Positions 24,145-38,926 of a DNA stretch of 64,000 nt are shown in pieces; the stretch's first letter is position 1, and every line of letters starts with the position of its first letter. The DNA comes from a virus. Location: IMG/VR virus record IMGVR_UViG_3300037483_001116, positions 32,001 to 96,000 of that record. One strand, 5' to 3'. The notes under the pieces are model-generated. The model saw only the letters and a list, made by a program, of their open reading frames with translations, was not told the DNA's origin and did no database searches. The translations under genes and the position numbers were made by a program.

Positions 24145-24237
24145 TTACAGTCCAAGGCGTAGCCGCCGATGGGACCGCCTCACGGCGTCGATCGGGTTGT
24201 CGGCTACCTCCGACACATACGTTGATCCTTGGACTTG

Positions 24238-24311: not shown

Positions 24312-24748
24312 TTGCCTTTGCTCCGCTTTGCTGCGCTGAATTCCCTGTTGTACTTGCGGGCGGCTTCTCGACAAAGCTCGCAGGGGCAATTACGCCTCCC
24401 CTTGACGCCCCCTCCGTGGGGAACGCTTCTCTCGTGAGAAGTCTTAACATCGTGATGCTCTTCGCAAAGGACCTGGCACTTGACCAATTCGGCGAAGAGT
24501 TTCTTGTCGCTGGCTAAAATTACCTTCGAGATGTTGATGCTTTTCTTGGAGCGATCGATGTGATCAATCTCCAGGTCTTCCAGGGCCCCACACTTTACGC
24601 AAGCGCCGCCAAGAAAGTCGATGGCCATTTGCCTGCGTCGCGCGTACCTTTCGGCAAGATAGTTGCGCATATAGGTGTTGTAGCAGAGCCGACATTTACT
24701 GGAGTTGGGCACAGCTTCATCGACTTTACAGACATGACATAACCTCAT
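24302..24748 (-). CDS. HNH endonuclease
   Basis: CVKCG..LEIDHID...CQVLCEEHH. Confidence 0.85.
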   Translation of the reverse strand: MRLCHVCKVDEAVPNSSKCRLCYNTYMRNYLAERYARRRQMAIDFLGGACVKCGALEDLEIDHIDRSKKSINISKVILASDKKLFAELVKCQVLCEEHHDVKTSHERSVPHGGGVKGRRNCPCELCREAARKYNREFSAAKRSKGKPV

Positions 24749-24774
24749 GAGGTTAAGGTTACACCGTGCTTACG

Positions 24775-24852
24775 TGGTGGCGGGGGGAGGATTTGAACCT
24801 CCGGCTTCCGACTTATGAGGACGGCGGGCTGTCCTAGCTGCCCTACCCCGCT
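24775..24852 (-). tRNA. tRNA-Met(CAU), initiator-like
   Basis: 1:72 mismatch, loop CTCATAA, CCA encoded. Confidence 0.8.
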
Positions 24853-24911
24853 ACGGGTTGCTGCTTGTGATGCTACAGCTAGCCTACCTCAAGCGGGAGA
24901 CTGGCCGCAAG

Positions 24912-24987
24912 TGCTCCGGGATGGATTCGAACCATCGATGCACATCGATTAAAAGTCGAGGCCAATTGACCGCTCTGGCACCGGAGC
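24912..24987 (-). tRNA. tRNA-Lys(UUU)
   Basis: loop CTTTTAA. Confidence 0.85.
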
Positions 24988-25003
24988 ATGTTCCATGGGT
25001 GCG

Positions 25004-25076
25004 TCCCCCCGGCACGATTCGAACGTGCAACCATCGGAGTAGAAATCCGGCGCTCTATCCGTTGAGCTACGAGGGG
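25004..25076 (-). tRNA. tRNA-Arg(UCU)
   Basis: loop TTTCTAC. Confidence 0.85.
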
Positions 25077-25083
25077 CGGTGGA

Positions 25084-25260
25084 TCATATCGCTGACTGGA
25101 AGCCGGCGACAATGCCGTTGGATTCATCGTCCTCGGCCATGACCCGTTTGAGGCTACTTGCCAGGACCGGATTGTCCACCGCGGTCAGCAGCTCGGCGAG
25201 GCTGTATTCGGATAAGTCGGCCAGGCCCTCGGTGTCGTCGCGTTCCTTGTTGCTTGCCAC
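25084..25260 (-). CDS. FxSxx-COOH (FxsA-like) RiPP precursor-like peptide, 58 aa
   Basis: MASNKERDDTEGLADLSEYSLAELLTAVDNPVLASSLKRVMAEDDESNGIVAGFQSAI*; AAAGGGGAG RBS; not in ORF track. Confidence 0.8.
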   Translation of the reverse strand: MASNKERDDTEGLADLSEYSLAELLTAVDNPVLASSLKRVMAEDDESNGIVAGFQSAI

Positions 25261-25405
25261 TGCAGCTCCCCTTTTTTTGATGCCGGTAATGCCCTTCAGG
25301 AACCCCTACCCCCGGCTCTCTGCTCGGACTTTCACCGAAGAGTACATCCCCTCTGACCTTGCGGCCGTGGGACTGTTCCGGGAGTGCGAGGGTTCCTGAA
25401 GGTCG

Positions 25406-25477
25406 TGTCCTGTATGGGAATCGAACCCATGACTCAAGGCTTTAGAGGCCTTCTCTCTGCCACTGAGCTAACAGGAC
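25406..25477 (-). tRNA. amber-suppressor tRNA (anticodon CUA)
   Basis: stem AAGGC/GCCTT, loop CTCTAAA. Confidence 0.85.
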
Positions 25478-25704
25478 TAGCTGCGGTCGACCACTGTGCC
25501 GTTGCCGACCTGCCGACCGCTACTCGGCTTCCCGTGGACTGTGATCGTTGCCGCGTCCCAGTCCCTCTGGTCGTATTGCTTGTGGGCTGTTACTTCTACT
25601 CGGGAGGTGGGCTCCATGTCCACGCACTGGTCGACGAGCCACCGCAAATCAGCCAAGGTAATGGGCTCAGATACGGTGATTTTATTGACGATTTCTCTGG
25701 CCAT
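25477..25704 (-). CDS. small hypothetical protein
   Basis: ATG 2 nt after tRNA-Lys; MAREIVNKITVSEP. Confidence 0.6.
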   Translation of the reverse strand: MAREIVNKITVSEPITLADLRWLVDQCVDMEPTSRVEVTAHKQYDQRDWDAATITVHGKPSSGRQVGNGTVVDRS

Positions 25705-25705
25705 G

Positions 25706-25778
25706 TGCTCCCGGTCCGATTTGAACGGACGTCCATGGATTAAGAATCCACCGCTCAACCAGACTGAGCTACGGGAGC
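25706..25778 (-). tRNA. tRNA-Lys(CUU)
   Basis: loop TTCTTAA. Confidence 0.9.
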
Positions 25779-25787
25779 ATGGTGATG

Positions 25788-25994
25788 TTATTCCACGAAA
25801 ACAATGTCGATATCCTTTGACGCTATGCCCTTCACGCCTAGGGTGGCGACGTTTGACAGGCGTTCCTGTATGTAGGCGTCCCTGGCCTCCTGCCAGGTGT
25901 CGTACCGGATCGGACTCCAGTGGGGGAACCTGAACCATATTGGTTCGGGAACGAAGTACCTTTTCGTTACGTAGTAGCCGGGCATTGTCGTCAC
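25788..25994 (-). CDS. small hypothetical protein
   Basis: AGGAGG RBS. Confidence 0.55.
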   Translation of the reverse strand: MTTMPGYYVTKRYFVPEPIWFRFPHWSPIRYDTWQEARDAYIQERLSNVATLGVKGIASKDIDIVFVE

Positions 25995-26017
25995 CTCCTA
26001 TTGATCTTTTTTCTACG

Positions 26018-26098
26018 CGGAGGGTGGAGGTATCGATCCCCCAGGTTTTACCCTGGCACGACTTTCAAAGCCGCTTTGCCGCCTCGGCGCCATCCTCC
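26018..26098 (-). tRNA. tRNA-Ser(UGA)
   Basis: loop TTTGAAA, long variable arm. Confidence 0.75.
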
Positions 26099-26377
26099 AT
26101 GTGTGTCGCCGCCCAGGCCACTTGATTCAAAGTCTTCGTCAGGTGCGACAGAGATTCGAATGCGGTGCCCCACGGATTTTCGCCTGGGTCCCCGTCTGGC
26201 AGCAAGGCCAGGATCACGTCCATGTCGATGTGGCCGTCCGCGGTACGGGGCGGCCAGCCGGCTAGTTCCGTTTCTAACTCTGGCTCGCAGGAGCCAGGTG
26301 TTTCCCAGGGCAATGCCTCGGGCCATCCTGGATGAGAACTAAGCATTGATCGATTTTACTCTGCTTAGACCCCTACG

Positions 26378-26466
26378 CGGTGACTAGCGGAATCGAACCG
26401 CTGCAACGTTTATAAGCGTTGTACATTCTTTCCAGGAATGCCCCTCGAACCAACCGGACAGTCACC
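26378..26466 (-). tRNA. tRNA-Ser(GGA)
   Basis: loop CTGGAAA, long variable arm. Confidence 0.85.
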
Positions 26467-26615
26467 TCATCTGTAATGCCATCCGAACCCCTCGGGGCAT
26501 TCGGCTGCGGTCTTACCTTGTGCTGCGGCTTTGGCCTGGGCGTCGGCTGGATTCCGGTAGCCCACCATTTGGCACTGGGGGCACCAGAAACGGGCCTTGT
26601 TCCGTTTCACCCTGG

Positions 26616-27122
26616 TCACGCGGCGGGCCCACGACTTACGAAGAGGCGGCGGTAGACGGTTTCACTGACCACTGCGACCGGATACTCCGTCATTGTGATC
26701 ATTGCATCTACCTGCATGACCTGCCGGCCGAACTGGCCGGTGGCCTCAATGAGAGAGACCTTGCGGTTGTACCGCCTGGCGCCCAGCTGATTGAGGATGA
26801 GACCCAGCGGCATTGTCCTGGCGTCAAGCGCAGCCCTGGCGTCTTCCGTCAGCCGCTCAGTGGCCACCACTGAGCACACATCCGCAATCACCTGGTGCCG
26901 TCTGACTTGAAGCCGGCCGCAGCGGTACAGCACATCGCTGCCGGCCTCGACCTCCAGGGCCGCCGCATACTCTACGGTGGCCGACAGATACTCGTGACGG
27001 GTGGACACATAATCCACATTAGTCCGCAGCCAATGGGCTGCCGTGCCGGTGAAAGTCTCGGCGTCGCGAAGTTGAGCCGTAAACGACTCTATTTCCTGTT
27101 CCAGTTCCTTGGATCTGGTCAC
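26616..27122 (-). CDS. chorismate-lyase/UTRA-fold-like protein
   Basis: VLYRCGRL...SVVATERL...L....MPLGLIL...VAVVSETVY pattern. Confidence 0.55.
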   Translation of the reverse strand: MTRSKELEQEIESFTAQLRDAETFTGTAAHWLRTNVDYVSTRHEYLSATVEYAAALEVEAGSDVLYRCGRLQVRRHQVIADVCSVVATERLTEDARAALDARTMPLGLILNQLGARRYNRKVSLIEATGQFGRQVMQVDAMITMTEYPVAVVSETVYRRLFVSRGPAA

Positions 27123-27123
27123 G

Positions 27124-27206
27124 CGGTAGGCCCGGGTCTCGAACCCGGAACGGGGTTAACCGCACACGTTTTCGAAACGTGCTCCTCACCAATTCGGATG
27201 CCTACC
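27124..27206 (-). tRNA. tRNA-Ser(CGA)
   Basis: loop TTCGAAA. Confidence 0.85.
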
Positions 27207-27327
27207 ATGGGTTGGCGCCAGGACCCGAACCTGGCCTTTCTGGCCCGAGGCCGGGCGTGCTGACAGCCGTCTCACCGGGCTTGATGCCGGATAGATCAGG
27301 CTGCCGTTCCCCCTACACTATGCAACG

Positions 27328-27401
27328 TCTGGGTGGCCGGAATTGAACCGACGACCTCCTCGTCCCGAACGAGGCGTTCCACCAAGCTGAACTACACCCA
27401 G
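27328..27401 (-). tRNA. tRNA-Pro(CGG)
   Basis: loop TTCGGGA. Confidence 0.9.
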
Positions 27402-27417
27402 AAGACCTTTGTTTGCG

Positions 27418-27493
27418 TCGGGACGGAGGGATTTGAACCCCCGAATCTCCAGACCCCCAGTCTGGCGCGTTGACCAAGCTACGCTACGTCCCG
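27418..27493 (-). tRNA. tRNA-Pro(GGG)
   Basis: loop CTGGGGG. Confidence 0.9.
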
Positions 27494-28050
27494 ATGTCTT
27501 TGTGTGTACGATAGGTGCAAATTTTCCAGGCCGTTGTGCGATGCACCTGGAACTGAGCACCTATTTCGTCAAAACTGCTGCCACCAGAAAAGGCTTTCCT
27601 GATCTCTAGAACCCGTTCAGGGGTCAAATGATTACCGGTACCTTTGGGGCTTCTGTACTTTGCCGCGTACGTTTTTTGGGCGGCGCTACATGCGTCACAC
27701 CGGCAGTTCCAGGGCGCCCTATAGCCAGTAGGGGTCCCGTGGGGAAGGACAAGAATTTTGTTGTGGGCGCCGCCGGTTTCTTTATTTTCTTTACTTTTTC
27801 GGCGGTGACATTTTTCGCAGAGCAGTTGGCACTTGTCCAATTCACTAACCATGACTTGCCAGCGCCTATTGTAATTTGCGGCAATGGTAAACGACTTGGA
27901 CTTGGGGTCAATGTGATCAAATTGAAGGCTCTTTTGAGAACCGCATCTGTTGCAGAGATTACCAAGGTAATCTCTGCAACGCTGCCTTCGTCTCGCAACC
28001 CATTTTTTGTCGTATTCGCGGCGCCATCTACGTAATTCAGCCTTGTCCAT
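27484..28050 (-). CDS. HNH endonuclease with C-terminal HTH
   Basis: CNRCG..LQFDHIDP...CQLLCEKCH; visibly AT-richer. Confidence 0.85.
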   Translation of the reverse strand: MDKAELRRWRREYDKKWVARRRQRCRDYLGNLCNRCGSQKSLQFDHIDPKSKSFTIAANYNRRWQVMVSELDKCQLLCEKCHRRKSKENKETGGAHNKILVLPHGTPTGYRAPWNCRCDACSAAQKTYAAKYRSPKGTGNHLTPERVLEIRKAFSGGSSFDEIGAQFQVHRTTAWKICTYRTHKDIGT

Positions 28051-28091
28051 GACGCTATCGTAGTGCCCGCTCTAACCGTAGCGCAACGGCG

Positions 28092-28163
28092 CGCCCCCAC
28101 AAGGAGTCGAACCTTGATCTGAATCTCCGTAGGATTCCGTCATATCCGTTGGACCATGGGGGC
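28092..28163 (-). tRNA. tRNA-Arg(ACG)
   Basis: loop CTACGGA. Confidence 0.9.
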
Positions 28164-28255
28164 TTAACTGTGGGACCCGCGCCGGGCCCCACTTCCCTCC
28201 ACCGCACCATGGCGGCAGCCGCTTGATAGTGGAGGAGGCCTCGTCGGCCCGGCGG

Positions 28256-28330
28256 TAGGAACGGGAAGAATCGAACTTCCGACCTCCGAGTTATCAGCTC
28301 GGCGCTAACTAACCACTGAGCTACGCTCCC
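28256..28330 (-). tRNA. tRNA-Ile(GAU)
   Basis: loop CTGATAA. Confidence 0.9.
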
Positions 28331-28422
28331 AGGTGCCCGGAAGATGGCCCTCTCCCGGGACTTTTCGTCGACCGAACAATCGCTTCAAGGCGGCCTCTTC
28401 GTCGACTTCAATGCGCATTGCG

Positions 28423-28511
28423 CAGAGGCATAGGGATTCGGACCCTAGGGACACCTGACGATGTCCACTGGCTTAGCAGGCCAGCCCGTTAGACCACTCC
28501 GGCATGCCTCT
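28423..28511 (-). tRNA. tRNA-Ser(GCU)
   Basis: loop CTGCTAA, long variable arm. Confidence 0.85.
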
Positions 28512-28578
28512 AGGCGCCGGGGCCACCCTCCCCCGCTGGGGCTCTATGCCTGCCCTAGGCTTCCCCCACCGAGGGAAG

Positions 28579-28653
28579 CGGTCCGTAGGGAATTCGAATC
28601 CCTGGTCCCCGCCGTGACAAGGCGGTGCTTTAACCTGGCTAAGCTAACGGACC
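28579..28653 (-). tRNA. tRNA-Asp(GUC)
   Basis: loop TTGTCAC. Confidence 0.9.
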
Positions 28654-28660
28654 TTGCTCA

Positions 28661-29041
28661 TTACTTTGGATCAATATACAGGGATGTCACCGGATCCCAG
28701 ACCAGTTCCGCGTGGACCCGGTTCAGGTCCGCGGTAGCGTCTGGCGTTCCTTCCGGAACACAGACCCAGCCTTGGCCTGGGACGAGGATCGAGTACCAGC
28801 CTCTCTGTTCGGCTTCCCGCACCCCGGGCCACTCTCCACGCCAAACCTCCGGCGCACATTCATCGCAGCATTTGCCGGGGCCTTCTTCGGTTCCGTTGTC
28901 GTCCAGGCCGAAGAGGACATGCTGTAGGTGCTGTTCTCCGTCGACTATGCAACGGGCTACGTCGCAGCCGACCAGGTGCTGTTTGTTGACCCTGACGCCG
29001 CAGTCAGGGCAGTGAGGGCCGGCGACGGTCACAACCTTCAA
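28661..29041 (-). CDS. Cys-rich hypothetical protein
   Basis: CPDCG..H..GCDVARC...W.GEWPG motif. Confidence 0.65.
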   Translation of the reverse strand: MKVVTVAGPHCPDCGVRVNKQHLVGCDVARCIVDGEQHLQHVLFGLDDNGTEEGPGKCCDECAPEVWRGEWPGVREAEQRGWYSILVPGQGWVCVPEGTPDATADLNRVHAELVWDPVTSLYIDPK

Positions 29042-29065
29042 GGTTCCTCCGGTAGGGAGATGAAG

Positions 29066-29141
29066 TGCCCTGACTGGGATTCGAACCCAGACTGTACCCT
29101 GTTTAAGAGGGCTCTCTAGCTGCCAGTTGGAGTACCAGGGC
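29066..29141 (-). tRNA. tRNA-Leu(UAA), short variable arm
   Basis: loop CTTAAAC. Confidence 0.85.
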
Positions 29142-29194
29142 TCTTCACTGGCACTGATCCTAGGCGCAGCTACGGCTCCTCTGTCAAGCCTCTG

Positions 29195-29268
29195 TGCCGG
29201 CGTAGGGATTCGAACCCTAAAACACCTGATTCTGAGTCAGGCCGCTTGAGCCGTCAGCGTGCGCCGGC
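29195..29268 (-). tRNA. tRNA-Leu(CAG), short variable arm
   Basis: loop CTCAGAA. Confidence 0.85.
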
Positions 29269-29487
29269 AGGCACCCCAGCCTTTCGGGTCCTCGACCATT
29301 GCCTCGCGAGTCTGGTCGAATTCCTTGGCCCCTGTGTCCTACGTCCGTCTGGGGTTACGGCTAGGGGTACGCGTGGTGAAGGGCGACCAGGGCTACTGTC
29401 AAGCATTCAGGCCCAGCCAGCCGGCCTGCTAATCCTGGTTCTTGATCCTCGCTGTCCGGACCCTTCACGTATCCGTGGAACCGGACG

Positions 29488-29671
29488 TGGACCTGGCGGG
29501 AATTGCACCCGCGCCAATGTAGACGGTGGGATAACGCGCTTCCCTCCCGGGGGTTGAGGTTCCCTTCCCTGTGGTCTTCTACACCACTGGCCCGGCGCCG
29601 GTGCCTCCGCAAACCCTGCCGTCGTGTCGCATCCTTCGTTTTATGCCGCTCTACTTCTGAGCTACAGGCCC
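29488..29671 (-). ncRNA. Ala-identity tRNA-like RNA with ~110-nt insertion in place of the anticodon arm
   Basis: GGGCCTG/CAGGTCC-A with G3:U70, normal D- and T-arms. Confidence 0.65.
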
Positions 29672-30192
29672 TTGTTCTTTATGCGCTCTCGCCCAAGGCG
29701 AAGACCATTGGGGTTATGCGGACTTAGTTTTTTGTCGCTGAAGTATCGACCCTGATGGATCGCATAGATTGCCCATTTTGTAACACCATATTCCTCTGCG
29801 AGCGAAACTGCGCTTCTTTGCTTAGACCTGAACAGGTGTACAATTTCTTCACCTTGGTCACGAGAAATTCGACGAGGTCGCGGATGCCATGAAGCAATCA
29901 CAGAATCTATCTGTTCCTGACGGCGAATGCCCATGAATGGCCTAAGCTGCTTCATAACATGAAGTGCCGGGTACCCTGTAACACTTACGCAGAAAGTATT
30001 TTTAAACCGCAGGTTACTCGGAACATATCTTTGGTATGAAGCGTCGAGCAATTTAGCTGCCCGAGAGACTACGTCTTCATCTGTCATTTGAAGACGAATG
30101 GCAATCTTATTTGGATCTGATGGGGGACCCTTGACGAAGGTCCCTTCACCTTCCAGGAGTCCCACTAGCCAGTAGAAATCAGAGTCTTTCAT
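29662..30192 (-). CDS. LAGLIDADG homing endonuclease
   Basis: YWLVGLLEGEGTF, QMTDEDVV; AT-richer. Confidence 0.85.
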   Translation of the reverse strand: MKDSDFYWLVGLLEGEGTFVKGPPSDPNKIAIRLQMTDEDVVSRAAKLLDASYQRYVPSNLRFKNTFCVSVTGYPALHVMKQLRPFMGIRRQEQIDSVIASWHPRPRRISRDQGEEIVHLFRSKQRSAVSLAEEYGVTKWAIYAIHQGRYFSDKKLSPHNPNGLRLGRERIKNKGL

Positions 30193-30193
30193 G

Positions 30194-30266
30194 TGGAGCC
30201 TGCCCGACTCGAACGGGCCACCCCCGCCTTGCAAAGACGGTGCTCTACCAGATGAGCTAAGGCCCC
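30194..30266 (-). tRNA. tRNA-Ala(UGC)
   Basis: loop TTTGCAA, G3:U70. Confidence 0.9.
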
Positions 30267-30274
30267 TTGAGGAA

Positions 30275-30341
30275 AGCCGGGGGGGAGAGTCGAACTCCCA
30301 CCATCTCCGTCGAGTGCCCTGCCAATTGGGCTACTCCCGGC
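30275..30341 (-). ncRNA. tRNA-like RNA with truncated anticodon arm
   Basis: D- and T-arms intact, only CTC-GACG-GAG in the anticodon position. Confidence 0.55.
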
Positions 30342-30347
30342 TTCCCG

Positions 30348-30420
30348 AGCCAACGGTGCGGATCGAACGCACTACCTCTTCCGTACGAAGGAAGCGCCCT
30401 ACCTTCAGGACCTCGCTGGC
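30348..30420 (-). tRNA. tRNA-Thr(CGU)
   Basis: loop TTCGTAC. Confidence 0.85.
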
Positions 30421-30429
30421 ATTTCCTTG

Positions 30430-30720
30430 CTACCAGGACACGGATACTGGCGCGTACCAGTCCATGTCTTCACGGTCGGCGGCCTGCGTCTTCAGCAGGC
30501 CTTGGCGGACTTGCCGCCACGCTCCGCGTTCCTGCTGGCGGAGGTGCTTGCGGTACAGCTGGCCTACGCACAGGTTGCAGCCGCAGGTGTTGTACAGCGG
30601 CCACGGCTCCAGCCCCCTGCCGTTGCCCCAGCCCCAGTTGGGGCGCCACAACATCCGGTGCTGGTTGTACGGATCGGTGACCTGTACCCGGTAGGGACGA
30701 TGAACGTCGGTTCTGGACAC
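30430..30720 (-). CDS. hypothetical protein (MSRTD family)
   Basis: MSRTDVHRPYRVQ...CGCNLC. Confidence 0.65.
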   Translation of the reverse strand: MSRTDVHRPYRVQVTDPYNQHRMLWRPNWGWGNGRGLEPWPLYNTCGCNLCVGQLYRKHLRQQERGAWRQVRQGLLKTQAADREDMDWYAPVSVSW

Positions 30721-30817
30721 GTAACGACCTGTCCTTCGGCCGCCTGGAGACTTTCCCCAGGTCTAACGCCTGCCGTCGCCCATCGCGATCACGCTCCTTT
30801 AGGTCAATACTGAGCCT

Positions 30818-31030
30818 ATGAGTGAAACTGTTCAGATCATTTCCGCGGTGACCACCGGTATCGTGGCCATCATTGCCGCCTACGGCGCGATCCAGGTCCG
30901 GCGTGTACATACCTTGGTCAATTCCAAGAACGATGCGATGGCGGCTCGGATCGAGCAGCTGGCTGAGGAGTTACGCGCCAGGGGTGACGGGACCGTTCCT
31001 GAGGCCCCCGAGAAAAAGGCTCAGCTGTAG
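30818..31030 (+). CDS. small membrane protein
   Basis: N-terminal TM, VHTLVNS motif. Confidence 0.6.
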   Translation: MSETVQIISAVTTGIVAIIAAYGAIQVRRVHTLVNSKNDAMAARIEQLAEELRARGDGTVPEAPEKKAQL

Positions 31031-31410
31031 TAGCTGTTTCTGCGGTGTACCTGGTCGCGTACGGCCTTGTCGACTTTGATGCTGGCCAGGACTGTCTTCT
31101 GCTTGACCATCAGGCTGTAGCAGCGGCAGTCCTGCTGGGCGCCGAGGGGAAGGTACAGGAACGGGTCGCCTTTGTGGTGGGCTTCGAGGAATTGTTCCAG
31201 CTTCTTGAAGCCCGGTACCTTGAAGATGCGCATGTCGTACCAGTGGTAGACCTGTGCGATCAGCCAGCGATGCAGTGGCTGTTCCCATAGTTCCAACCGG
31301 TAGGTGATGCGGCGATTTTCGTCGCGTAAGTGGTGGACGGTGCTGACGTCGAATCCACGCTTTTTGATCATGTTGGCCGGCGTCACGTGCCGGAGCCGGT
31401 GTGTTGGCAT
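31021..31410 (-). CDS. hypothetical protein
   Basis: GC3-biased ORF after tRNA-Thr. Confidence 0.6.
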   Translation of the reverse strand: MPTHRLRHVTPANMIKKRGFDVSTVHHLRDENRRITYRLELWEQPLHRWLIAQVYHWYDMRIFKVPGFKKLEQFLEAHHKGDPFLYLPLGAQQDCRCYSLMVKQKTVLASIKVDKAVRDQVHRRNSYYS

Positions 31411-31419
31411 GGGGCTGCG

Positions 31420-31492
31420 AGCCGGCGACCGGGCTCGAACCGGTTGTCTTCGCGTTACAAGTGCGACGCAAGTCCTGACCTGCTCCGCCGGC
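31420..31492 (-). tRNA. tRNA-Thr(UGU)
   Basis: loop CTTGTAA. Confidence 0.85.
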
Positions 31493-31568
31493 ATTGACCA
31501 TACGGGCACCTATTGCGCCATCCGCTCCCCAGGCTCATTCGGTTTTACCTAGCGGCCAGACCCGTACG

Positions 31569-31641
31569 TGTCTCCGGGGAGGGTCGAACTCCCGCTGGCT
31601 GCCTCCTCAAGACAGTGCCTCTACCTTTGGGCTACGAAGAC
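31569..31641 (-). tRNA. tRNA-Leu(GAG), short variable arm
   Basis: loop TTGAGGA. Confidence 0.85.
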
Positions 31642-31770
31642 GTGTGGAAATCCCTGCGTGGCCCCTTGGGCCTCGCCCTCAGGAAACCTGCAGTTCCCCG
31701 GCTCCAGGGATCGATATGTTGCCGAGCGCATTTCTGGCCGGTTGATCATTCCGGCGTCCATGCGTTTCCG

Positions 31771-31850
31771 TGGAAGTGCGGGGAGTCGAACCCCGGTCCA
31801 GTGGTGTTCCGTCGTGCGGCTTTGCACCCCTGTCGTTACCAACCACCCCC
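31771..31850 (-). ncRNA. mini-tmRNA (tRNA-like domain only)
   Basis: GGGGGTG-GTTGGTAACGAC...GGAC-CGGGGTTCGACTCCCCG-CACTTCC-A; G3:U70; no D-stem; no coding domain. Confidence 0.65.
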
Positions 31851-31946
31851 GAGAACGTTTGGCCTTGTCATCCTTTCGGAAGCCCTCGCATCCGGCAGCT
31901 TTTATCGCCGCGCCCATCGGATAGCCAAACCGGCGAGTCCCTAGCG

Positions 31947-32018
31947 CTGGGAGTCCAGGACTCGAACCTGGACCAAGGCCGTCAGAGGACCTTGTGCTGC
32001 CAATTACACCAACTCCCA
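31947..32018 (-). tRNA. tRNA-Gln(CUG)
   Basis: loop CTCTGAC. Confidence 0.9.
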
Positions 32019-32161
32019 TTGGTGGGTTGGATCCGAAGACGGGGACCCCTCCGAACCCAACCCCTTACCATCCTGCAACCGGGCCCCCTGATAATTGGGC
32101 CCGGGTTCAGGTTCCTGGTTCGGGGGGCCCACAAATTCGCGGTCGGCGGGCCCCCCGAAGT

Positions 32162-32611
32162 TCAGCGCTGCAAGGTATTCCACGTCGGTGCGTAGGTCTT
32201 TACCTTGAGGGTCATGCCGGCCTCGTTGGGCAGCCGGTCGCCTTTGCGCTGGTTGCACGGGTCGCAACACGCGACGGTGTTGACCCAGGTGTTTTTTCCG
32301 TTCCGGGATACGGGCCGGATGTGGTCGACGGTGTTGCCGGCCGCGGCGCCGCAGTAGCCGCATTTGCGGCTGTCCCGGCGGAGCACACCTTGCCGGGACC
32401 AGGTAGGTCCGGCGGTGTACCGCCATTTGGTGACGATGAAGTGAATGAGCCTGACGGACAGGGGCCGTTCGTAGGGGCCTATGCGTATTTCAGGTTCCGA
32501 TTCGTGCACTTCCGCAACTCCGCGGAAGAGCATCCGGATGGCGTGCCTGAGGCTGACTCGATGCAATGGATCGAGGTCGGCGTTCAGGACCAAAACTGCT
32601 GCTCCCTGCAT
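32162..32611 (-). CDS. McrA-like HNH endonuclease
   Basis: VLVLNAD..PL; RRDSRKCGYCG...TVDHIRPVSRNGKNTWVNTVACCDPCN. Confidence 0.9.
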   Translation of the reverse strand: MQGAAVLVLNADLDPLHRVSLRHAIRMLFRGVAEVHESEPEIRIGPYERPLSVRLIHFIVTKWRYTAGPTWSRQGVLRRDSRKCGYCGAAAGNTVDHIRPVSRNGKNTWVNTVACCDPCNQRKGDRLPNEAGMTLKVKTYAPTWNTLQR

Positions 32612-32654
32612 CGAGTCACCTCCTTTGCGTGCAGAGGGTTCAATCTAGGTCACG

Positions 32655-32725
32655 AGCGGCTACGGGGGCTCGAACCCCGGTGTCCGGCATGGCGAGCCGG
32701 CGCACTACCACTGTGCTATAGCCGC
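32655..32725 (-). tRNA. tRNA-Gly(GCC)
   Basis: loop TCGCCAT, U73. Confidence 0.85.
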
Positions 32726-32843
32726 ATGTGAGGGGTGGGTTCTAGCGTCAGACTTCAACTCTCATGGAGAGGCTGCTTCCAAGGCTTCAGCGACCTAAAG
32801 CCCTACTTTCAATGCCAGGTCATTCTCCTGGACCAGAACCACG

Positions 32844-32916
32844 AGCGACCTGCGGGGCTCGAACCCGCGACCTTTTCCTTGGGAAAGAAACGCGCTACCA
32901 GCTGCGCCACGATCGC
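32844..32916 (-). tRNA. tRNA-Gly(CCC)
   Basis: loop TTCCCAA. Confidence 0.9.
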
Positions 32917-32918
32917 AC

Positions 32919-33233
32919 TTACTGTCCAGAATCTTTGCCGGTTGTACCTGGGTGCCATCGGGCCAGGGCCTCTGCTGCGAGTCGGCTTTGAGGTTGAAGT
33001 TGCTGACCTGGCGCCTTTGGCATTTGTCGACATTCAGCTGTTTCAGCTTTTGCTTGCTCCTTCTTCTCGGCCTGCCAGGTGGCTTCCAGCTGCCGGTTAC
33101 GGTCCCGCTTCTCCCTTACCTCGACCTTTTGAGCTTTCAGGATTGATCGGCGCCTCCTTCTGGAAGCATCCTGGAGCAGCACCTGCATCCGGAGGTGCTC
33201 GTACTCCTCCAGAGGAGTGTCTTGTCCAGTCAC
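32919..33233 (-). CDS. basic coiled-coil hypothetical protein
   Basis: fills the gap between two tRNAs; GTG 2 nt after tRNA-Thr. Confidence 0.55.
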   Translation of the reverse strand: MTGQDTPLEEYEHLRMQVLLQDASRRRRRSILKAQKVEVREKRDRNRQLEATWQAEKKEQAKAETAECRQMPKAPGQQLQPQSRLAAEALARWHPGTTGKDSGQ

Positions 33234-33234
33234 G

Positions 33235-33307
33235 AGCCCCAGGTCAGATTCGAACTGACAACCTTCTCCTTACCATGGAGACGCTCCACCGAGTGAGCTT
33301 CAGGGGC
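33235..33307 (-). tRNA. tRNA-Thr(GGU)
   Basis: loop ATGGTAA. Confidence 0.85.
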
Positions 33308-33340
33308 AAAAACCTGACCCACGAGGAGCCAGGTGGATAT

Positions 33341-33742
33341 TCATTTTGACGGCCGTTTCGGCCGGACTATGGGCCCAATTCCCTGCCAGCAGGGGTCAGG
33401 GCTGAGGGTGACGGCGATGATTTCCAGGGACGTGAACCAGGGAAATGGTTGGTCGTCCAAGGTGTAGTCGGGGCCGAGATCCATCGCTGGATACAGGTAT
33501 CCGGAGAATGCTCCGATTCGTTCGTGGATCTGGATTTGGGCCCAGATGGCAGTGTCGTCCAGGTCCCAGACCCGGCCCACCTTCCCTACCACTTCAGCCG
33601 AGGTGACGGCCCCAGGCATGGTCAGGAGCGGGGCGCCGCCTTTGTGGAGCCGGATGGTGGCGTCTTTGGTGATGCCACGTCCGTCAACGGTGGGAATGTT
33701 TCGAAAGGCGATGGGGCCTGCCCACCAGAAGCTGTTGTTCAC
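33341..33742 (-). CDS. hypothetical protein with prohead-protease-like motifs
   Basis: WAGPIAF..IPTVDGR...PLL...VVGKV...PAMDL...IIAVTLS.DP.W resembles the N-part of 46706-47902. Confidence 0.55.
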   Translation of the reverse strand: MNNSFWWAGPIAFRNIPTVDGRGITKDATIRLHKGGAPLLTMPGAVTSAEVVGKVGRVWDLDDTAIWAQIQIHERIGAFSGYLYPAMDLGPDYTLDDQPFPWFTSLEIIAVTLSPDPCWQGIGPIVRPKRPSK

Positions 33743-33743
33743 G

Positions 33744-33818
33744 TGCCGACCCCGGGACTCGAACCCGGACTGTCTCCCTTTTGAAGAGAGCGCCTGCTAC
33801 CAATTGGGCTAGGCCGGC
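33744..33818 (-). tRNA. tRNA-Leu(CAA), short variable arm
   Basis: loop TTCAAAA. Confidence 0.85.
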
Positions 33819-33828
33819 ATCTTGTCTA

Positions 33829-34101
33829 CTACCAGTACTCTTTCCCCGGCTCGTAGTCTTCCCACACGATCTGTGGCTCGGCGTGGACGACGGTCCGCAG
33901 CTCGACCAGTTCCTTGTGGGCGTCGATGCAGTCGTCACAGATCCAGACCACCATGACGGGGGCGCTGTGGGTTGGGTCCCAGATGCGGCTGCCGTAGTTG
34001 CCGCCGGCCGTAAACCGGAGGCCGTGGCTGGGAGTTTTCTCGCCGAGGTCGTGTTCGCCGAAGACCAGCTCCAGCTTCTTGGCGCATTTGAAACAGTTCA
34101 C
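33829..34101 (-). CDS. Zn-ribbon hypothetical protein
   Basis: CFKC...GNYGS..WDP...ICDDC. Confidence 0.65.
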   Translation of the reverse strand: MNCFKCAKKLELVFGEHDLGEKTPSHGLRFTAGGNYGSRIWDPTHSAPVMVVWICDDCIDAHKELVELRTVVHAEPQIVWEDYEPGKEYW

Positions 34102-34102
34102 G

Positions 34103-34177
34103 TTGGGCCGACGGGCCTCGAACCCGCTTCTCTCTCGTTATCAGCGAGGGGTTTTCACCGGATTAAACTACCGCCCA
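34103..34177 (-). tRNA. tRNA-Ile(GAU), second copy
   Basis: loop CTGATAA. Confidence 0.8.
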
Positions 34178-34187
34178 CGTTTTTGCG

Positions 34188-34258
34188 CTCGGGTACCTAG
34201 ATTCGAACTAGGACTACTGCATCCAAAGTACAGTGGGCTTCCATTACCCCATACCCGA
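34188..34258 (-). tRNA. tRNA-Gln(UUG)
   Basis: loop CTTTGGA. Confidence 0.85.
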
Positions 34259-34265
34259 TCGTACG

Positions 34266-34338
34266 AGCGGCCTGCGGGCACCGACCCCGCTGCTTCAGTT
34301 TGGAAGACTGACGTGTCCGCCGAGTTCACCAAGGCCGC
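34266..34338 (-). tRNA. tRNA-Gly(UCC)
   Basis: loop CTTCCAA. Confidence 0.8.
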
Positions 34339-34342
34339 ATGT

Positions 34343-34406
34343 TTCCCCTGCGGAGCTGAACCGCTCTGCCTGCATACAGGTGTGCTGCCGTTACACTAAC
34401 GGGGAA
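34343..34406 (-). ncRNA. tRNA-like RNA with tetraloop anticodon arm
   Basis: TAGTGTAACGGCAGCAC D-arm, CCTG-TATG-CAGG, T-arm. Confidence 0.5.
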
Positions 34407-34540
34407 TTGGCCTGGGCGGCGAGGCATTGCTGCCCGACGCCTTGCATGTCCCCACCCTATGGGCGCGGCCCAGGCTACGAAACTGACGTTGGCCCCTGAG
34501 TCAGTCAATCAGGGATGACGGGCACTAAGCGCCCATGCCG

Positions 34541-34613
34541 TACCCCACGCGGACTCGAACCGCGACTCCGAGCTTCTGATGACACGGTGTGTTGCCATTT
34601 ACACCAAAGGGGC
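34541..34613 (-). tRNA. atypical tRNA with expanded anticodon loop (centred on TCA/TCAG)
   Basis: CCGTG-TCATCAGAAG-CTCGG. Confidence 0.6.
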
Positions 34614-34699
34614 TTGAGACTGGCGTCGGCTCCCTGGGCCAGTCAACCGGGGTGGTGTAGCCGCGAATCCCGGGGAAGAATCCGGGGGCAGCATTGCCG

Positions 34700-34771
34700 T
34701 AGAGCGTAGGAGAATCGAACTCCTCTTCTTCTCGCTGAGAACGAGACGGGACACCACTACCCCAACGCTCC
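34700..34771 (-). tRNA. tRNA-Glu(CUC)
   Basis: loop TTCTCAG. Confidence 0.8.
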
Positions 34772-34807
34772 ATTGGCCCTGGGAGGCGGTATCTCCCAGG
34801 GAGCTTG

Positions 34808-35830
34808 CTACTTGATGAGGTACAGGTACCGGGTGCCAGCGATCAACTTCCGGTTGATCGACGTCGACTGGACGAAGATGTCGAAGTCGGCGTTGTGGTT
34901 GGGGCTGACCCGTACGTTCATGTCGGGCAGGCCAATCATCTGCCGCGCGTCCCGGCCGCTGTACACCTTGTGGTCTTTCTTGCCGACCACGATGATGTCC
35001 TTCGACGCCTGGATCTCTTCGCGCTTCATCAGCTGGTAGAACCCGCGGCCGACCTGATAGGTGTGGCCACACTGCTTGGTGAACTCGTCGATGCGGCCGT
35101 CGGTAGGCACCGGCACCAGGATGTAGCTGCCTCGGGCCAGCGGCGCGAGGCCAGCCTGGGCGATGGTCTGGACGTTGACGGCGTCAGCCCCGGTGGAGAA
35201 CAGGCTGCGGGTTGACCGGACGCCGGTGGCTCGGGCCTGCATGTAGCTGTCGGTGGCGGCCCTGACCCTGTCGCCAGCCTCCGAGACACCCTTGGCGGAA
35301 TTCGCGTCCCAGATTTCGATGTTGCCGGCCGGGAAGCCGAACTTCTTCGCCTCGTGCACGCCGCGGGCGTTGGGCACCAAGGCGGCCAAGGTCCAGTGGT
35401 CTTTGAGGTCCTTGAGGGCCTGCTGCAACGTGTAGGCGGTATTGCGGCTGCGGTTTTCTTCGCCGTCGGTCAGGACGTAGACCAAGAACGAATGGTCCCC
35501 ATACCGTTCTGGTGTTTCGCCCAGGTCCCGGATGCTCTGCAAGGTGGCGTCGATGAACGCGGTGTTGCCGTTGGGGCGGTAGTACTGGGCGATGCTCGGC
35601 AGCCGGAGCACGTCCTTGTCCCACACGACGCAGTGAATGTTGGTGGGGTCGGCGAACGTCCAGACCGAGATGCGGGTTTCTTGGTCCAGTTCGCGGGACC
35701 GGCGGGCTAAGTGCTCGATCTGGCTGTCGGCGACTTTGACCAGGTCGTGCTTGTACGGGTCCATGGAGGTGGAGGCGTCTAACACGAGGCCGATGTGGTT
35801 GATGATGTTCGCGGCGGCTGCGGCGGGCAT
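34808..35830 (-). CDS. vWA-domain protein
   Basis: LVLDASTSM MIDAS, NGNTAFIDA, VLTDGEENRS. Confidence 0.85.
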   Translation of the reverse strand: MPAAAAANIINHIGLVLDASTSMDPYKHDLVKVADSQIEHLARRSRELDQETRISVWTFADPTNIHCVVWDKDVLRLPSIAQYYRPNGNTAFIDATLQSIRDLGETPERYGDHSFLVYVLTDGEENRSRNTAYTLQQALKDLKDHWTLAALVPNARGVHEAKKFGFPAGNIEIWDANSAKGVSEAGDRVRAATDSYMQARATGVRSTRSLFSTGADAVNVQTIAQAGLAPLARGSYILVPVPTDGRIDEFTKQCGHTYQVGRGFYQLMKREEIQASKDIIVVGKKDHKVYSGRDARQMIGLPDMNVRVSPNHNADFDIFVQSTSINRKLIAGTRYLYLIK

Positions 35831-35974
35831 GCGTGGCTCTCTTCCAGGCGGAGGTACGGTGTGCCCCGTATCTTCCGGCTGGGGTATGACATTTTTGGCT
35901 AGGGAGGAACCGTGTACCCGGTCTTCCTGTCTCCCGCGAGACGCAGACCGTACGGCCGGTCTCTGTCCCTAACG

Positions 35975-36046
35975 TGCTCCCGGGCGGAATCGAACCGCCG
36001 TATCTCGGGCTTCAACCGAGTGCTACACCATCTCAGCTACAGGAGC
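35975..36046 (-). tRNA. tRNA-Phe(GAA)
   Basis: loop TTGAAGC. Confidence 0.9.
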
Positions 36047-36157
36047 GCAGGATTCCTTTTCCCCCGACGCCGTGGCGCCGTGTGTGGTGGTACTGGGGAA
36101 TCCCTAGGACCGTCACCGTTGAGTCTGCCCGCACGGTCCCTGACACGAGCAGCGGAG

Positions 36158-36340
36158 CTATAGAGATTCCGGTTGCCGTACATCACCTTTGGCGAAGCTC
36201 AAAGTGACCACGGCCGACTTCGCCACGTTGGGGTGGTCGTAGAATTCGATGTACCTGGACTTGTGGCTCTTGAATTTGGCGACGAAACGGGTGCCGTTCC
36301 GCATCCAGACGATGACGCGTTTGCCTTGCTGTACGGACAT
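36158..36340 (-). CDS. small basic protein
   Basis: MSVQQGKRVIVWMRNGTRF. Confidence 0.5.
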   Translation of the reverse strand: MSVQQGKRVIVWMRNGTRFVAKFKSHKSRYIEFYDHPNVAKSAVVTLSFAKGDVRQPESL

Positions 36341-36378
36341 GTGGCCGCTGCGTCTCACTGGATTCCTCCAAGAGGATT

Positions 36379-36455
36379 TGGGCCCCGCCGAGGAATCAAA
36401 CCTCGGACCTCCAGCCCGATCGCGGGCTGGCGCTCTATCGATAAGCTATCGGGGC
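36379..36455 (-). ncRNA. tRNA-like RNA with 8-bp anticodon stem and tetraloop
   Basis: CCAGCCCG-CGAT-CGGGCTGG; ends CCCA. Confidence 0.55.
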
Positions 36456-36568
36456 TTGTCGGCCCCGGCCCTTCACCGGCCAGTCCATGGCCGGCGGGTA
36501 CCGGGGCCTCTAAATGCTGCACCGTCCGGGGAAGGTGTTGGTGCAGCAGCTACGCGCGGGTCATGGCG

Positions 36569-38125
36569 TTACGCTACCGCGACCCGGTACACGTGGTGGC
36601 TGTACTCAGCTGCGAACGTGTCGGTGAATCGGCCACCGGTCACAGTCAAGGTCCGGTTCTCGCCGACGACCTCGACGCTTGTGCCGGTCACGCCGGCCGG
36701 CAGGGTGAACGTCTTGGCGCCAGCCGTTTCCTTAAGGCCGATGTCCGCGAAGATGTACGCCGAACCCTGGTAGACCTTCAGCATCGTGTCTGTACCGTTG
36801 TCGAAGTCATACCGGTAGGACTGGGTGTTGATGACCGGCGCCAGACCGCGCACCGTGGCGTTGAGGGCGGTGAGACTGGTTTCCATCGCACGCTCGCACG
36901 CAGATCCCTCGTCGCATGCCGGGTCGTTGTTGTGCATGAAGTACGAGATACCGCGCGCCTCGTGGATGATCATTGACCAGACGGCGCCCTCGATTTGGTC
37001 GGGCGTGATCGTCCGGGCACCAGCGTCGCCGAGTAGCGGCCGTGCCGTTTCGACAAATCCCCACGCCGGCTTGAGGGTGTTCGGCGCCATGAACGAGCGC
37101 ATTTGGTCGACCTGCCAGCCGTACGCCGCCGCGGTTGCCGGGTCCGCTCCGGCCGGCCAGTCCGGGGAGTGGAGCAATAGGTCGTCGACGTCGGGGCTGG
37201 TGTACGAGTACTTGTCGGCGCTGACCGAGTCCATCAGGGCAACGTGGTCGTCCATTGTGGTCGGTGCCCACCAGGTACGCGTGATGCCGTTGCCGAAGTT
37301 GGCGTGCTTGAACCGGCCGTCGTTGTATGCCGTTACTTTGTCCACGTAGGACTGCTGCACGGCCAGGCGGCCGTACTCGCCGTTGTCGTTGTTCCAGTCG
37401 GGGGTGCAGTCGCTGTAGCCCATCTCGCACTCATCGGAGATGAACCACGACACCACGCGCGGGTCGTTGCCCACCTCCGCCGGGGTCCATTCTTCTTGCT
37501 GGGCCATGACGAACATGCCCTGATTGGTCACGGTCGACATCGGCCAGATCGCGACGTTGTGCTCCATGGCCTGATACGTGTTGATGCCCAGGCTCTTGTA
37601 CCGGGCCGCGTCCTGCATCTTGCCGAGGAACACGCTGATCGGGAAGAAGTTGGGATCGGTCCAGCCGACCGACTGAGCTTTCGGGAAGTTGGTCCAGTAT
37701 GTCGATCCGCCCTCCCATGGGATGCGCGGCAGAGTGAGCACACCGCCCGATGGGGTCACGGTCGGCGTTGGCGTCGGAGTGGGCGTACCTGTCGACGGGC
37801 TTGGCGTCGGCGACACCGACGGACTTGGGCTGGCGGATGGGCTCGGGCTGGCGGACCCAGTTGGGTCCGGCGTCAGGCCGGCGCCGAAGATGGCGATGCA
37901 GTCGGTCAGCCAGTTCCGGGCTCGGGCCGACAATCCGGCCGTGCCCTGCGCCTTGCGGTCCACGCACCATTGGCCGAGCTGGTCGGGGGCCAGTGCCGGT
38001 ACCGACAGGTCCACCGGTGCGGCGGCAAGCTGACGTGGCGTGCCCCAAGATGACAGAAGAGTCCCTGCCACAAGAGCGACGGCGATGAGGGCCGACGTGA
38101 AAGCAATGCGTTTACTGCGTATCAT
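36569..38125 (-). CDS. secreted glycoside-hydrolase-like protein
   Basis: signal peptide, S/P/T linker, FFPISV..WFISDE..WGFVET..IHEARGISYF TIM-barrel-like motifs. Confidence 0.6.
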   Translation of the reverse strand: MIRSKRIAFTSALIAVALVAGTLLSSWGTPRQLAAAPVDLSVPALAPDQLGQWCVDRKAQGTAGLSARARNWLTDCIAIFGAGLTPDPTGSASPSPSASPSPSVSPTPSPSTGTPTPTPTPTVTPSGGVLTLPRIPWEGGSTYWTNFPKAQSVGWTDPNFFPISVFLGKMQDAARYKSLGINTYQAMEHNVAIWPMSTVTNQGMFVMAQQEEWTPAEVGNDPRVVSWFISDECEMGYSDCTPDWNNDNGEYGRLAVQQSYVDKVTAYNDGRFKHANFGNGITRTWWAPTTMDDHVALMDSVSADKYSYTSPDVDDLLLHSPDWPAGADPATAAAYGWQVDQMRSFMAPNTLKPAWGFVETARPLLGDAGARTITPDQIEGAVWSMIIHEARGISYFMHNNDPACDEGSACERAMETSLTALNATVRGLAPVINTQSYRYDFDNGTDTMLKVYQGSAYIFADIGLKETAGAKTFTLPAGVTGTSVEVVGENRTLTVTGGRFTDTFAAEYSHHVYRVAVA

Positions 38126-38290
38126 CTGCGATCCTTTTCGGTGACCCCGTGTGGCCATTCGAGAAGATCCCGAATAGTTTGCACGGGCCAGCTTGTTGCT
38201 GGCCGTACGCGATTTGGAAGTTCGATGAGCTATGGAACGTGGAGCCGGTGCGGGCGGAGGTACTCGCTCCGGAGTTTCCCAACACCGACG

Positions 38291-38363
38291 TGGAGATGAG
38301 GAGATTCGAACTCCTTGCCTCTGCGTTGCGAACACAGCGCTCTACCAAGTGAGCTACACCCCC
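38291..38363 (-). tRNA. tRNA-Ala(CGC)
   Basis: loop TTCGCAA, G3:U70. Confidence 0.9.
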
Positions 38364-38558
38364 AAGGGCCAGGTTGCGGAGAGGGATCGCACCTTCCGAT
38401 GGCCCTGAGGACCATTCCCCACTAAGGGAACCTAGAACACGACCTGGCCGAAAGAAAACGATCGCGCATCGATCCTCCCGAACCCCGCTGCAAACGGTAC
38501 TGGGTCAACCCCTGGAGGGGCAGCCTTTGCAGGACTGCCCCCTACGGGAGGATCAACG

Positions 38559-38633
38559 TGGAGGTAAACGGATTCGAACCGATGACTCCCACACTGCCAG
38601 TGTGGTGCTCTGACCGGACTGAGCTATACCCCC
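38559..38633 (-). tRNA. tRNA-Ala(GGC)
   Basis: loop CTGGCAG. Confidence 0.9.
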
Positions 38634-38852
38634 AAAGTTTTGACCCGCCTTTCTGGCCCTCAGGACGGGTCCACCGAGGCATCATCCAGCCGGCACAAAC
38701 GGCTGCTGCCATATCGGAAAGCTTGGTTGCGCTGGTCGTTGCTCCTTCGGCGACTTAATCCGACTCCCGGACCAACAAGGGACCACATGTCCGCCCCACG
38801 ATCCGGGCCGGGCTACCAGTCACGGCGCCCATATTTGCATCAACCAGCACAG

Positions 38853-38926
38853 TCGGGACGGAGCGATTTGAACGCTCGACCCCTCGCTCCCAAAGCGAGT
38901 GCCCTACCTGACTGGGCCACGTCCCG
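38853..38926 (-). tRNA. tRNA-Pro(UGG)
   Basis: loop TTTGGGA. Confidence 0.9.

Follow-up and report, generated by a model that had tools for sequence, protein, structure and literature searches.

A phage mini-tmRNA gene lacking the mRNA-like domain and the viral RNA family in which it is placed by comparative analysis

Background

Trans-translation is the main ribosome-rescue and protein quality-control pathway of bacteria, and the G3:U70 pair is the determinant of tmRNA for alanyl-tRNA synthetase. The D-loop/T-loop elbow of the tRNA-like domain (TLD) of tmRNA is bound by SmpB (Bessho et al. 2007 and Gutmann et al. 2003, as cited in PMC4131195 and PMC11090510). The closest described system was listed by Hudson et al. 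2014 as "Mycobacterium phage DS6A (TLD only)" (PMC4131195). According to the account of Mao et al. 2009 relayed there, a similar molecule, whether chargeable or not, strongly inhibits tmRNA, perhaps via titration of SmpB. In the 2025 tmRNA database paper (PMC11915505) the DS6A RNA is termed CDS-less and is said to inhibit endogenous tmRNA in E. coli. CDS-less tmRNAs are also described from organelles, namely jakobid and oomycete mitochondria and, as genes of ~65 bp, the plastids of Mallomonadaceae (PMC11915505). The first-pass annotation of the locus studied here held that tagless forms are known mainly from some mitochondria; the mitochondrial forms are indeed on record, but the statement was incomplete, the TLD-only RNA of phage DS6A having already been published (PMC4131195; PMC11915505). 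The two functions which it suggested, sequestration of SmpB and rescue without a tag, are the same as those proposed in the literature.

The window, meaning the whole stretch of 64,000 nt analysed in this paper, corresponds to bases 32001-96000 of a 158-kb IMG/VR virus record. The portal protein of this phage is nearest to those of actinobacteriophages, with 32% identity to Actinoplanes phage phiAsp2, followed by Arthrobacter, Microbacterium, Mycobacterium and Gordonia phages. Comparison of the region with cultured phages by megablast and blastn produced T-arm-sized matches only and no relatives, and an exact 32-mer search of IMG/VR produced no match. Relatives were reached through the portal protein and their genomes were then searched whole, and further copies of the RNA were collected with degenerate patterns.

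Results

Anatomy of the mini-tmRNA gene

As seen in Table 1, the elements of the gene follow one another without interruption. Read on the minus strand from 31850 to 31771, the 80 nt are GGGGGUG-GUUGGUAACGAC-AGGGGUG-CAAAGCCGCACGACGGAA-CACCACU-GGAC-CGGGG-UUCGACU-CCCCG-CACUUCC-A. The 7 pairs of the acceptor stem are, in order, G:C, G:C, G:U, G:U, G:C, U:A and G:C. The D-loop analogue terminates in GGUAACGAC and agrees with both the Rfam tmRNA consensus uGGaUU.CGAC and the family consensus GGUuUcGaC. Between this element and the GGAC connector lies a middle of 32 nt, in which a 7-bp helix closes an apical region of 18 nt (AGGGGUG / CAAAG-CCG-CACGA-CGG-AA / CACCACU). CCA is not encoded, and the sequence at the end of the gene is A-C-G-G.

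Table 1. Parts of the mini-tmRNA gene and its genomic surroundings (positions in the window)
Feature	Position	Strand	Remarks
Mini-tmRNA gene, entire	31771..31850	-	80 nt; G1 at 31850, discriminator A at 31771
Acceptor stem, 5' strand GGGGGUG	31844..31850	-	G3 at 31848; partner 31772-31778
D-loop analogue GUUGGUAACGAC	31832..31843	-	No D stem; GG and CGAC conserved
P2a-like helix, 5' strand AGGGGUG	31825..31831	-	Partner 31800-31806
Apical region CAAAGCCGCACGACGGAA	31807..31824	-	A-rich 5' side, then 3-bp CCG/CGG stem around CACGA
P2a-like helix, 3' strand CACCACU	31800..31806	-	6 Watson-Crick pairs and one G.A
GGAC connector	31796..31799	-	tmRNA hallmark; precedes T-arm; agrees with Rfam consensus cGGACGcGGG
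T-arm CGGGG-UUCGACU-CCCCG	31779..31795	-	Canonical
Acceptor stem, 3' strand CACUUCC, and discriminator A	31771..31778	-	U70 equivalent at 31774, paired with G3 at 31848
Co-oriented tRNA array with embedded mini-tmRNA	7590..39212	-	~44 tRNA genes; ARAGORN and Rfam
Immediate context	31568..32018	-	tRNA-Gln(ctg) 31946-32018 upstream, tRNA-Leu(gag) 31568-31641 downstream

The whole 32-nt middle consists of the helix and the apical hairpin, and an mRNA-like domain (resume codon, tag reading frame and stop codon) is absent; therefore, the RNA cannot template a degradation tag. Pseudoknots PK1-PK4 are also absent, the Rfam match deleting all model positions between both strands of helix 2. Neither a D arm nor an anticodon arm with a 7-nt loop was found in the RNA, and the apical region in the family measures 16-18 nt and carries its own 3-bp stem.

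The first-pass annotation had described a tRNA-like domain of tmRNA without the mRNA-like domain, and this description holds: Rfam matches both ends, as had been anticipated, with a score above the gathering threshold, and no tag frame is present. The GGGGGUG end, the D-loop analogue ending in GGUAACGAC, the GGAC, T-arm and CACUUCC-A series and the G3:U70 pair all lie where they had been placed, and the helix of about 35 nt said to join the ends is close to the measured 32 nt.

Scores on covariance models

On the Rfam tmRNA model RF00023, the gene scores 50.3 bits against a gathering score of 47 (E 6.8e-17), aligning with model positions 1-374 with the middle deleted, and in Rfam clan competition this model beats that of tRNA (RF00005). 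Across the whole 158-kb genome (CheckV 97% complete) it is the sole RF00023 match over the cut-off, and no other tmRNA was found there. On the same model, none of the ~44 true tRNAs of the genome exceeds 29 bits. The scores of the family members nevertheless straddle the gathering threshold, with 50.3 bits for the window copy, 48.4 and 46 bits for the copies of two related phages, and 43.2 bits, below threshold, for DS6A.

A second covariance model, R2, was built from 31 environmental copies unrelated to the window, with the window and DS6A copies excluded. The mini-tmRNA matches R2 in full length with 81.4 bits (E 4.8e-19), and full-length matches were also obtained with the copies of the relatives G003 (76.9 bits) and G001 (67.4 bits) and with DS6A (66.8 bits). 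The best tRNA on R2 reaches 37 bits, and the real tRNA-Ala genes (tgc, cgc, ggc) elsewhere in the array reach no more than 30 bits on the family model. Since the window RNA and the DS6A RNA both match R2 over positions 1-78, they are assigned by their sequences to one family.

Compared with shuffles, the single sequence has no exceptional folding energy (z = 0.36), and its D-loop region is mispaired in the MFE structure. Single-sequence folding is uninformative for a GC-rich tRNA-like RNA, and the support for this gene is comparative rather than thermodynamic. Comparative sequence analysis confirms the element as a real, conserved TLD-only tmRNA gene.

The surrounding tRNA array

The order Gln / mini-tmRNA / Leu is also found in G001. 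About 40 of the 44 array tRNAs end in N73-C followed by a non-CCA trailer, as does the mini-tmRNA. A search of 31300-32700 for promoter and terminator consensus sequences found neither.

ARAGORN reads the locus differently, as a permuted (two-piece) tmRNA of 695 nt at 31169-31863 (-) with the tag AASPTGWNYGNSHCIAG. Its own output speaks for this reading, but the call takes in two independent tRNA genes, Leu-gag and Thr-tgt, and its supposed tag is an off-frame read within a plausible ORF (the frame of 31021-31509, (-)). The tag segment of ~400 nt is missing from G001, and ARAGORN calls no tmRNA in G001 or G003. A permuted gene would also not show both acceptor strands in normal order on one 80-nt unit. 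Contradicted by the tRNA overlap, the off-frame tag and the lack of conservation, the 695-nt call is rejected as an artefact and is given practically no credence.

Several other features can be seen in the array. At 25405-25477 (-) and 34540-34614 (-) lie a tRNA with a CUA anticodon (amber-suppressor type, "Pyl" in ARAGORN) and a tRNA with a 4-base anticodon (tcag, 8-nt loop); the CUA tRNA also exists in the relative G005 (L020:2421-2493). A weak tRNA match of 65 nt at 30276-30340 (-), between tRNA-Ala(tgc) and tRNA-Thr(cgt), is just over the gathering score (RF00005, 31.7 bits) and has no ARAGORN call; it may be a degenerate tRNA. HNH endonuclease ORFs are found among the tRNA genes at 32162-32611 (-) and 27484-28050 (-). 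On the strand opposite to the array, a 70-aa ORF at 30818-31030 (+) (MSETVQIISAVTTGIVAIIAAYGAIQ…) has an apparent hydrophobic helix and no Pfam match, and is conserved in G001 (L019:935-1141, +).

Beyond the array, an orthologue of Ro60 (Pfam TROVE 73 bits, plus vWA) is encoded at 40384-41997 (-). Directly upstream on the same strand (42503-42768, (-)), two weak matches to YrlA (Y RNA-like) follow in tandem; 42503-42615 scores 29.3 bits and 42648-42768 scores 26.4 bits, where the gathering score is 69. What Rfam lists as a 59-nt "tRNA" (42563-42621) is the tRNA-like module of the match at 42503-42615. Together, the gene and the YrlA matches probably represent a Ro60 / Y RNA pair of the phage. 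The portal and head-maturation genes (44009-49790) are followed directly by a giant open reading frame at 49800-63998 (+), which encodes more than 4733 aa and continues past the window end.

Copies in related phages

Among the relatives, G001 (148 kb, portal protein 85% identical) has a compact copy of 79 nt and G003 (118 kb, portal protein 68% identical) a compact copy of 80 nt, each matched by RF00023 at both ends. The copy of G001 occupies the same site, between tRNA-Gln(ctg) and tRNA-Leu(gag). The helix that follows CGAC is AGGGGUG/CACCACU, GGGUAGC/GUUGCCU and UUGGCUG/UAGUCGA in the three copies, which are compensatory changes. The acceptor stem shows compensatory changes as well, and G3:U70 is kept in all three. 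The complete relatives G002 and G004, searched whole, have neither a mini nor a full tmRNA, which indicates that the mini-tmRNA is dispensable in the clade.

The compact form could in principle be a decaying, functionless remnant, left by a recent internal deletion in a full-length phage tmRNA or by a tmRNA attachment-site fragment. Full-length tmRNAs do exist in actinophages, such as that of Mycobacterium phage Kumao with 407 nt, and the element is absent from the two complete relatives mentioned above. However, the first-pass annotation had named full tmRNAs in relatives as the sign of such a deletion, and G001 and G003 carry the 79-80 nt form instead. More than 50 distinct sequences share the architecture of 77-81 nt; their identity elements are invariant, and two of the helices show compensatory changes. 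An attP fragment would not contain both halves of the acceptor stem, as this gene does, and no integrase is adjacent, the neighbours being tRNAs or replication genes; a link to attP or integrase finds no support. The remnant reading is contradicted by these comparative data and is considered very improbable.

Distribution and conservation in viral contigs

A first scan of IMG/VR with a degenerate pattern from the 3' half gave 62 loci, of which 33 distinct sequences close into the architecture of 77-81 nt. Full acceptor pairing, GGG/CCC in the T-stem and CGG in the apical stem were required in this selection, and the P2a helix, G3:U70 and the CCG side were left free. A second scan, anchored across the apical loop on the opposite side (CCG imposed, CGG free), gave 20 further members. 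Together, the two scans place over 50 distinct copies in viral contigs other than that of the window, and the copies scored are pattern-seeded subsets of the family.

In the 31 unrelated copies, standard pairs make up 96.2% of the pair cells, compared to 37-52% when the partners are slid by 1-3 columns. Changes on both sides occur in these copies at all 7 of the 7 P2a pairs and at four acceptor pairs; across the family, acceptor pairs 4-7 covary, and so do the first two pairs of the T-stem. G1:C72, G2:C71 and G3:U70 are present in 31/31 unrelated copies, and G3:U70 in 20/20 of the second, independent set. The discriminator is A in 34/35 copies of alignment A2 and in all 20 later copies, and the G, A and C of the GGAC connector are invariant in alignment A2. 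These patterns are taken to show that the structure and the alanine identity set are both under purifying selection. The invariance of G3:U70 and of the rest of this set suggests that charging matters.

The apical stem is equally constant: CCG was found in 31/31 copies when only CGG was imposed, and CGG in 20/20 when only CCG was imposed, while the AA 3' of CGG is variable in the 20 members of the second scan. The signature of the family, as defined in the present analysis, is the apical hairpin CCG-CAYG(N)-CGG, which is conserved in sequence and always placed on a 7-bp helix. A very short resemblance was noticed between the apical GCAYG and GCAUGUAG, which is conserved in helix 2 of full tmRNAs.

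Co-oriented tRNA arrays harbour 13 of 35 members, and the other 22 are solitary. Since these 22 exist without tRNAs, the RNA is retained for its own sake. One solitary lineage has the RNA beside replication genes (DnaB-like helicase, primase, endonuclease VII and PD-(D/E)XK nuclease). Across the lineages compared, no protein family is consistently found with the RNA, and the neighbours are lineage-specific, either tRNAs or replication genes. The Streptomyces phages LuckySocke (OR725497, 17977-18054), pSt2308 and BRock have a copy which is not annotated. In Streptomyces phage GiJojo (PP725410, 17025-17102) a copy lies under a "hypothetical protein" CDS (gene 44), probably a spurious ORF over the RNA gene. 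A match in phage Kumao was rejected, being the 3' end of its ordinary tmRNA and not a family member.

Search of representative bacterial genomes with the family pattern yielded 3 members among the 80 matches listed, the rest being mostly chance. The three lie on contigs binned to Sideroxyarcus, Pseudonocardiaceae and Synechococcaceae MAGs, and no host assignment could be made from the bacterial-genome matches listed. The family is essentially phage-borne, yet wider than the actinophages.

Discussion

Interference with the host SmpB pathway

From established knowledge of tmRNA, we infer how the RNA would be processed, charged and bound by SmpB and how it would affect trans-translation. The mini-tmRNA would be co-transcribed with the surrounding tRNA array and excised by tRNA-processing enzymes, with RNase P cutting at G1 and trimming at the 3' end. 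The host enzyme would then supply CCA, as in the case of the adjoining tRNAs, whose genes likewise do not encode it. With G1:C72, G2:C71, G3:U70 and A73, the product is a predicted substrate of the host alanyl-tRNA synthetase, and the D-loop analogue, GGAC connector and T-arm may form the elbow that SmpB binds in real tmRNA. SmpB was not found in the phage genome, and any SmpB partner would therefore be that of the host. The RNA would then compete with host tmRNA for SmpB, and probably also for EF-Tu and stalled ribosomes; competition is expected because an RNA with no resume codon, tag frame or pseudoknots can add no tag. The outcome would be that SsrA tagging of nascent proteins is lowered or bypassed during infection.

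Interference with host trans-translation through SmpB is favoured as the role of this RNA, with a probability of roughly 0.55, because inhibition is the only effect reported experimentally. A phage RNA that blocks or short-circuits trans-translation would be a compact natural tool and a part of the phage takeover of translation. The simplest form of this role, a pure SmpB sponge, appears insufficient: inhibition did not depend on chargeability in the work relayed in PMC4131195, while the alanine identity set of the family is invariant. Nor does a pure sponge account for an apical hairpin that is invariant and kept at a fixed distance of 7 bp.

Rescue without a tag

As a sponge needs no strict conservation of charging determinants, the main rival is that the alanylated RNA is delivered by EF-Tu and host SmpB to ribosomes halted on broken mRNAs of the phage or host and accepts the nascent chain. 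The peptidyl-RNA would be freed by drop-off and peptidyl-tRNA hydrolase, or by a GGQ release-factor-like protein, so that ribosomes are recycled and phage proteins are left unmarked for proteolysis. G1:C72 and G3:U70, kept at 31/31 and 20/20, and the nearly invariant A73 would be unexpected if charging were irrelevant. For the mitochondrial and plastid tmRNAs without a CDS, the same mechanism has been put forward (PMC11915505). The clade encodes a small protein with an RF-1/GGQ domain, and the neighbouring tRNAs presumably sustain late-infection translation. However, the RNA has no stop codon for termination and a release route must be assumed, and inhibition is the only experimental report that the literature cited above relays. 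The GGQ protein and the RNA are not distributed together: in G002 the protein is found without the RNA, and in the window's phage the protein is truncated to ~62 aa, against 130 aa in G001. Rescue without a tag is thus possible but rather doubtful.

The truncated protein (…FRCGGNGGQNVNT…) is encoded at ~21091-21300 (+) of G000:C1 (L093:1465-1674), outside the window, and the 130-aa homologue of G001 at L094:1465-1857; others exist in G002, G003 and G005, but not in G004. As an obligate partner within the clade, the GGQ/RF-1 protein was rejected on this distribution and on the truncation.

The constancy of the apical hairpin permits another explanation, in which the RNA is a decoy for targets outside ribosome rescue, such as host defence proteins that have SmpB-like RNA-binding domains, tRNA/tmRNA nucleases or RNase R, and the hairpin is the specific binding site. 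The CCG-CAYG(N)-CGG element is kept in sequence and not by covariation, on a helix of fixed length, which suggests sequence-specific recognition. CoCoNuT defence systems have SmpB-like OB folds predicted to bind tmRNA (PMC11090510), and a phage anti-CRISPR employs RNase R-binding t(m)RNA fragments (PMC11662646). No tie was found between such systems and the window phage or its host, however, no neighbouring protein is conserved alongside the RNA across lineages, and the full alanine identity set and SmpB-type elbow are kept, pointing to canonical partners. A decoy role is therefore regarded as improbable.

It can also be proposed, tentatively, that the DS6A-type mini-tmRNAs are a distinct class. 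Charged with alanine and no mere SmpB sponges, they would join host SmpB in stalled ribosomes and resolve the stall without tagging, and the hairpin CCG-CAYG-CGG, exactly 7 bp from the TLD, would be a docking site for a ribosomal element or a release/hydrolysis factor, replacing the mRNA-like domain. If true, this would represent a phage-specific, tag-free pathway of ribosome rescue. For the favoured interference through SmpB as well as for its main rival, the strict alanine identity set offers a concrete handle for separating a sponge from tag-less rescue.

Comparison with known systems

The mini-tmRNA shares with canonical one-piece tmRNA (RF00023, e.g. that of Kumao) the acceptor with G3:U70 and A73, the stemless GG..CGAC D-loop, GGAC, the T-arm and the base of helix 2. 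In contrast, ~300 nt between the helix-2 strands are missing from it, together with the pseudoknots, resume codon, tag frame and stop. With tRNA-Ala it has in common the 7-bp acceptor with G3:U70 and A73, the T-arm and the 3' processing context of the array tRNAs; unlike tRNA-Ala, it has no D stem, anticodon arm or anticodon, and ARAGORN makes no tRNA call. The CDS-less organellar tmRNAs are likewise cut to little beyond the TLD and kept under selection, a likeness at the level of the shared TLD. They co-occur, however, with a dedicated nucleus-encoded SmpB, whereas the RNA described here is viral, belongs to a phage without SmpB and has the family-specific apical hairpin.

The closest counterpart is the DS6A element, which was located in an unannotated gap (JN698994 28478-28557; tmID 11587 of the tmRNA Website) and reads GGGGCCG-CAAUGGUGGUCGAC-CGCCG..GAAAACCGCACGCGGUAC..CGGCG-GCAC-T arm-CGGCUCC-A, with the apex GAAAA-CCG-CACG-CGG. 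Both RNAs have 80 nt, a G3:U70 acceptor, a GG..CGAC D-loop analogue, a short P2a helix, the apical AAAACCGCACGCGG hairpin, a GCAC or GGAC connector, a T-arm and a discriminator A, and neither gene encodes CCA. The window copy differs in that its apical region is the 18-nt variant, with one additional C and a CACGA loop of 5 nt, and in that P2a contains one G.A mismatch. It lies in the tRNA array of a 158-kb phage, whereas the DS6A copy is solitary, beside a DNA pol III gene in a temperate phage of 60 kb.

As a homologue of the published DS6A RNA, the window copy alone adds little. The comparison shows, rather, that the family is widespread, with DS6A as its only published phage example, and that routine annotation almost always misses it: ARAGORN fails on 32 of 35 copies, the Streptomyces phage copies are unannotated or covered by a spurious CDS, and the Rfam threshold splits the members. 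How broad the family is, which hairpin marks it and how nearly universally annotation fails to find it go beyond what PMC4131195 and PMC11915505 describe.
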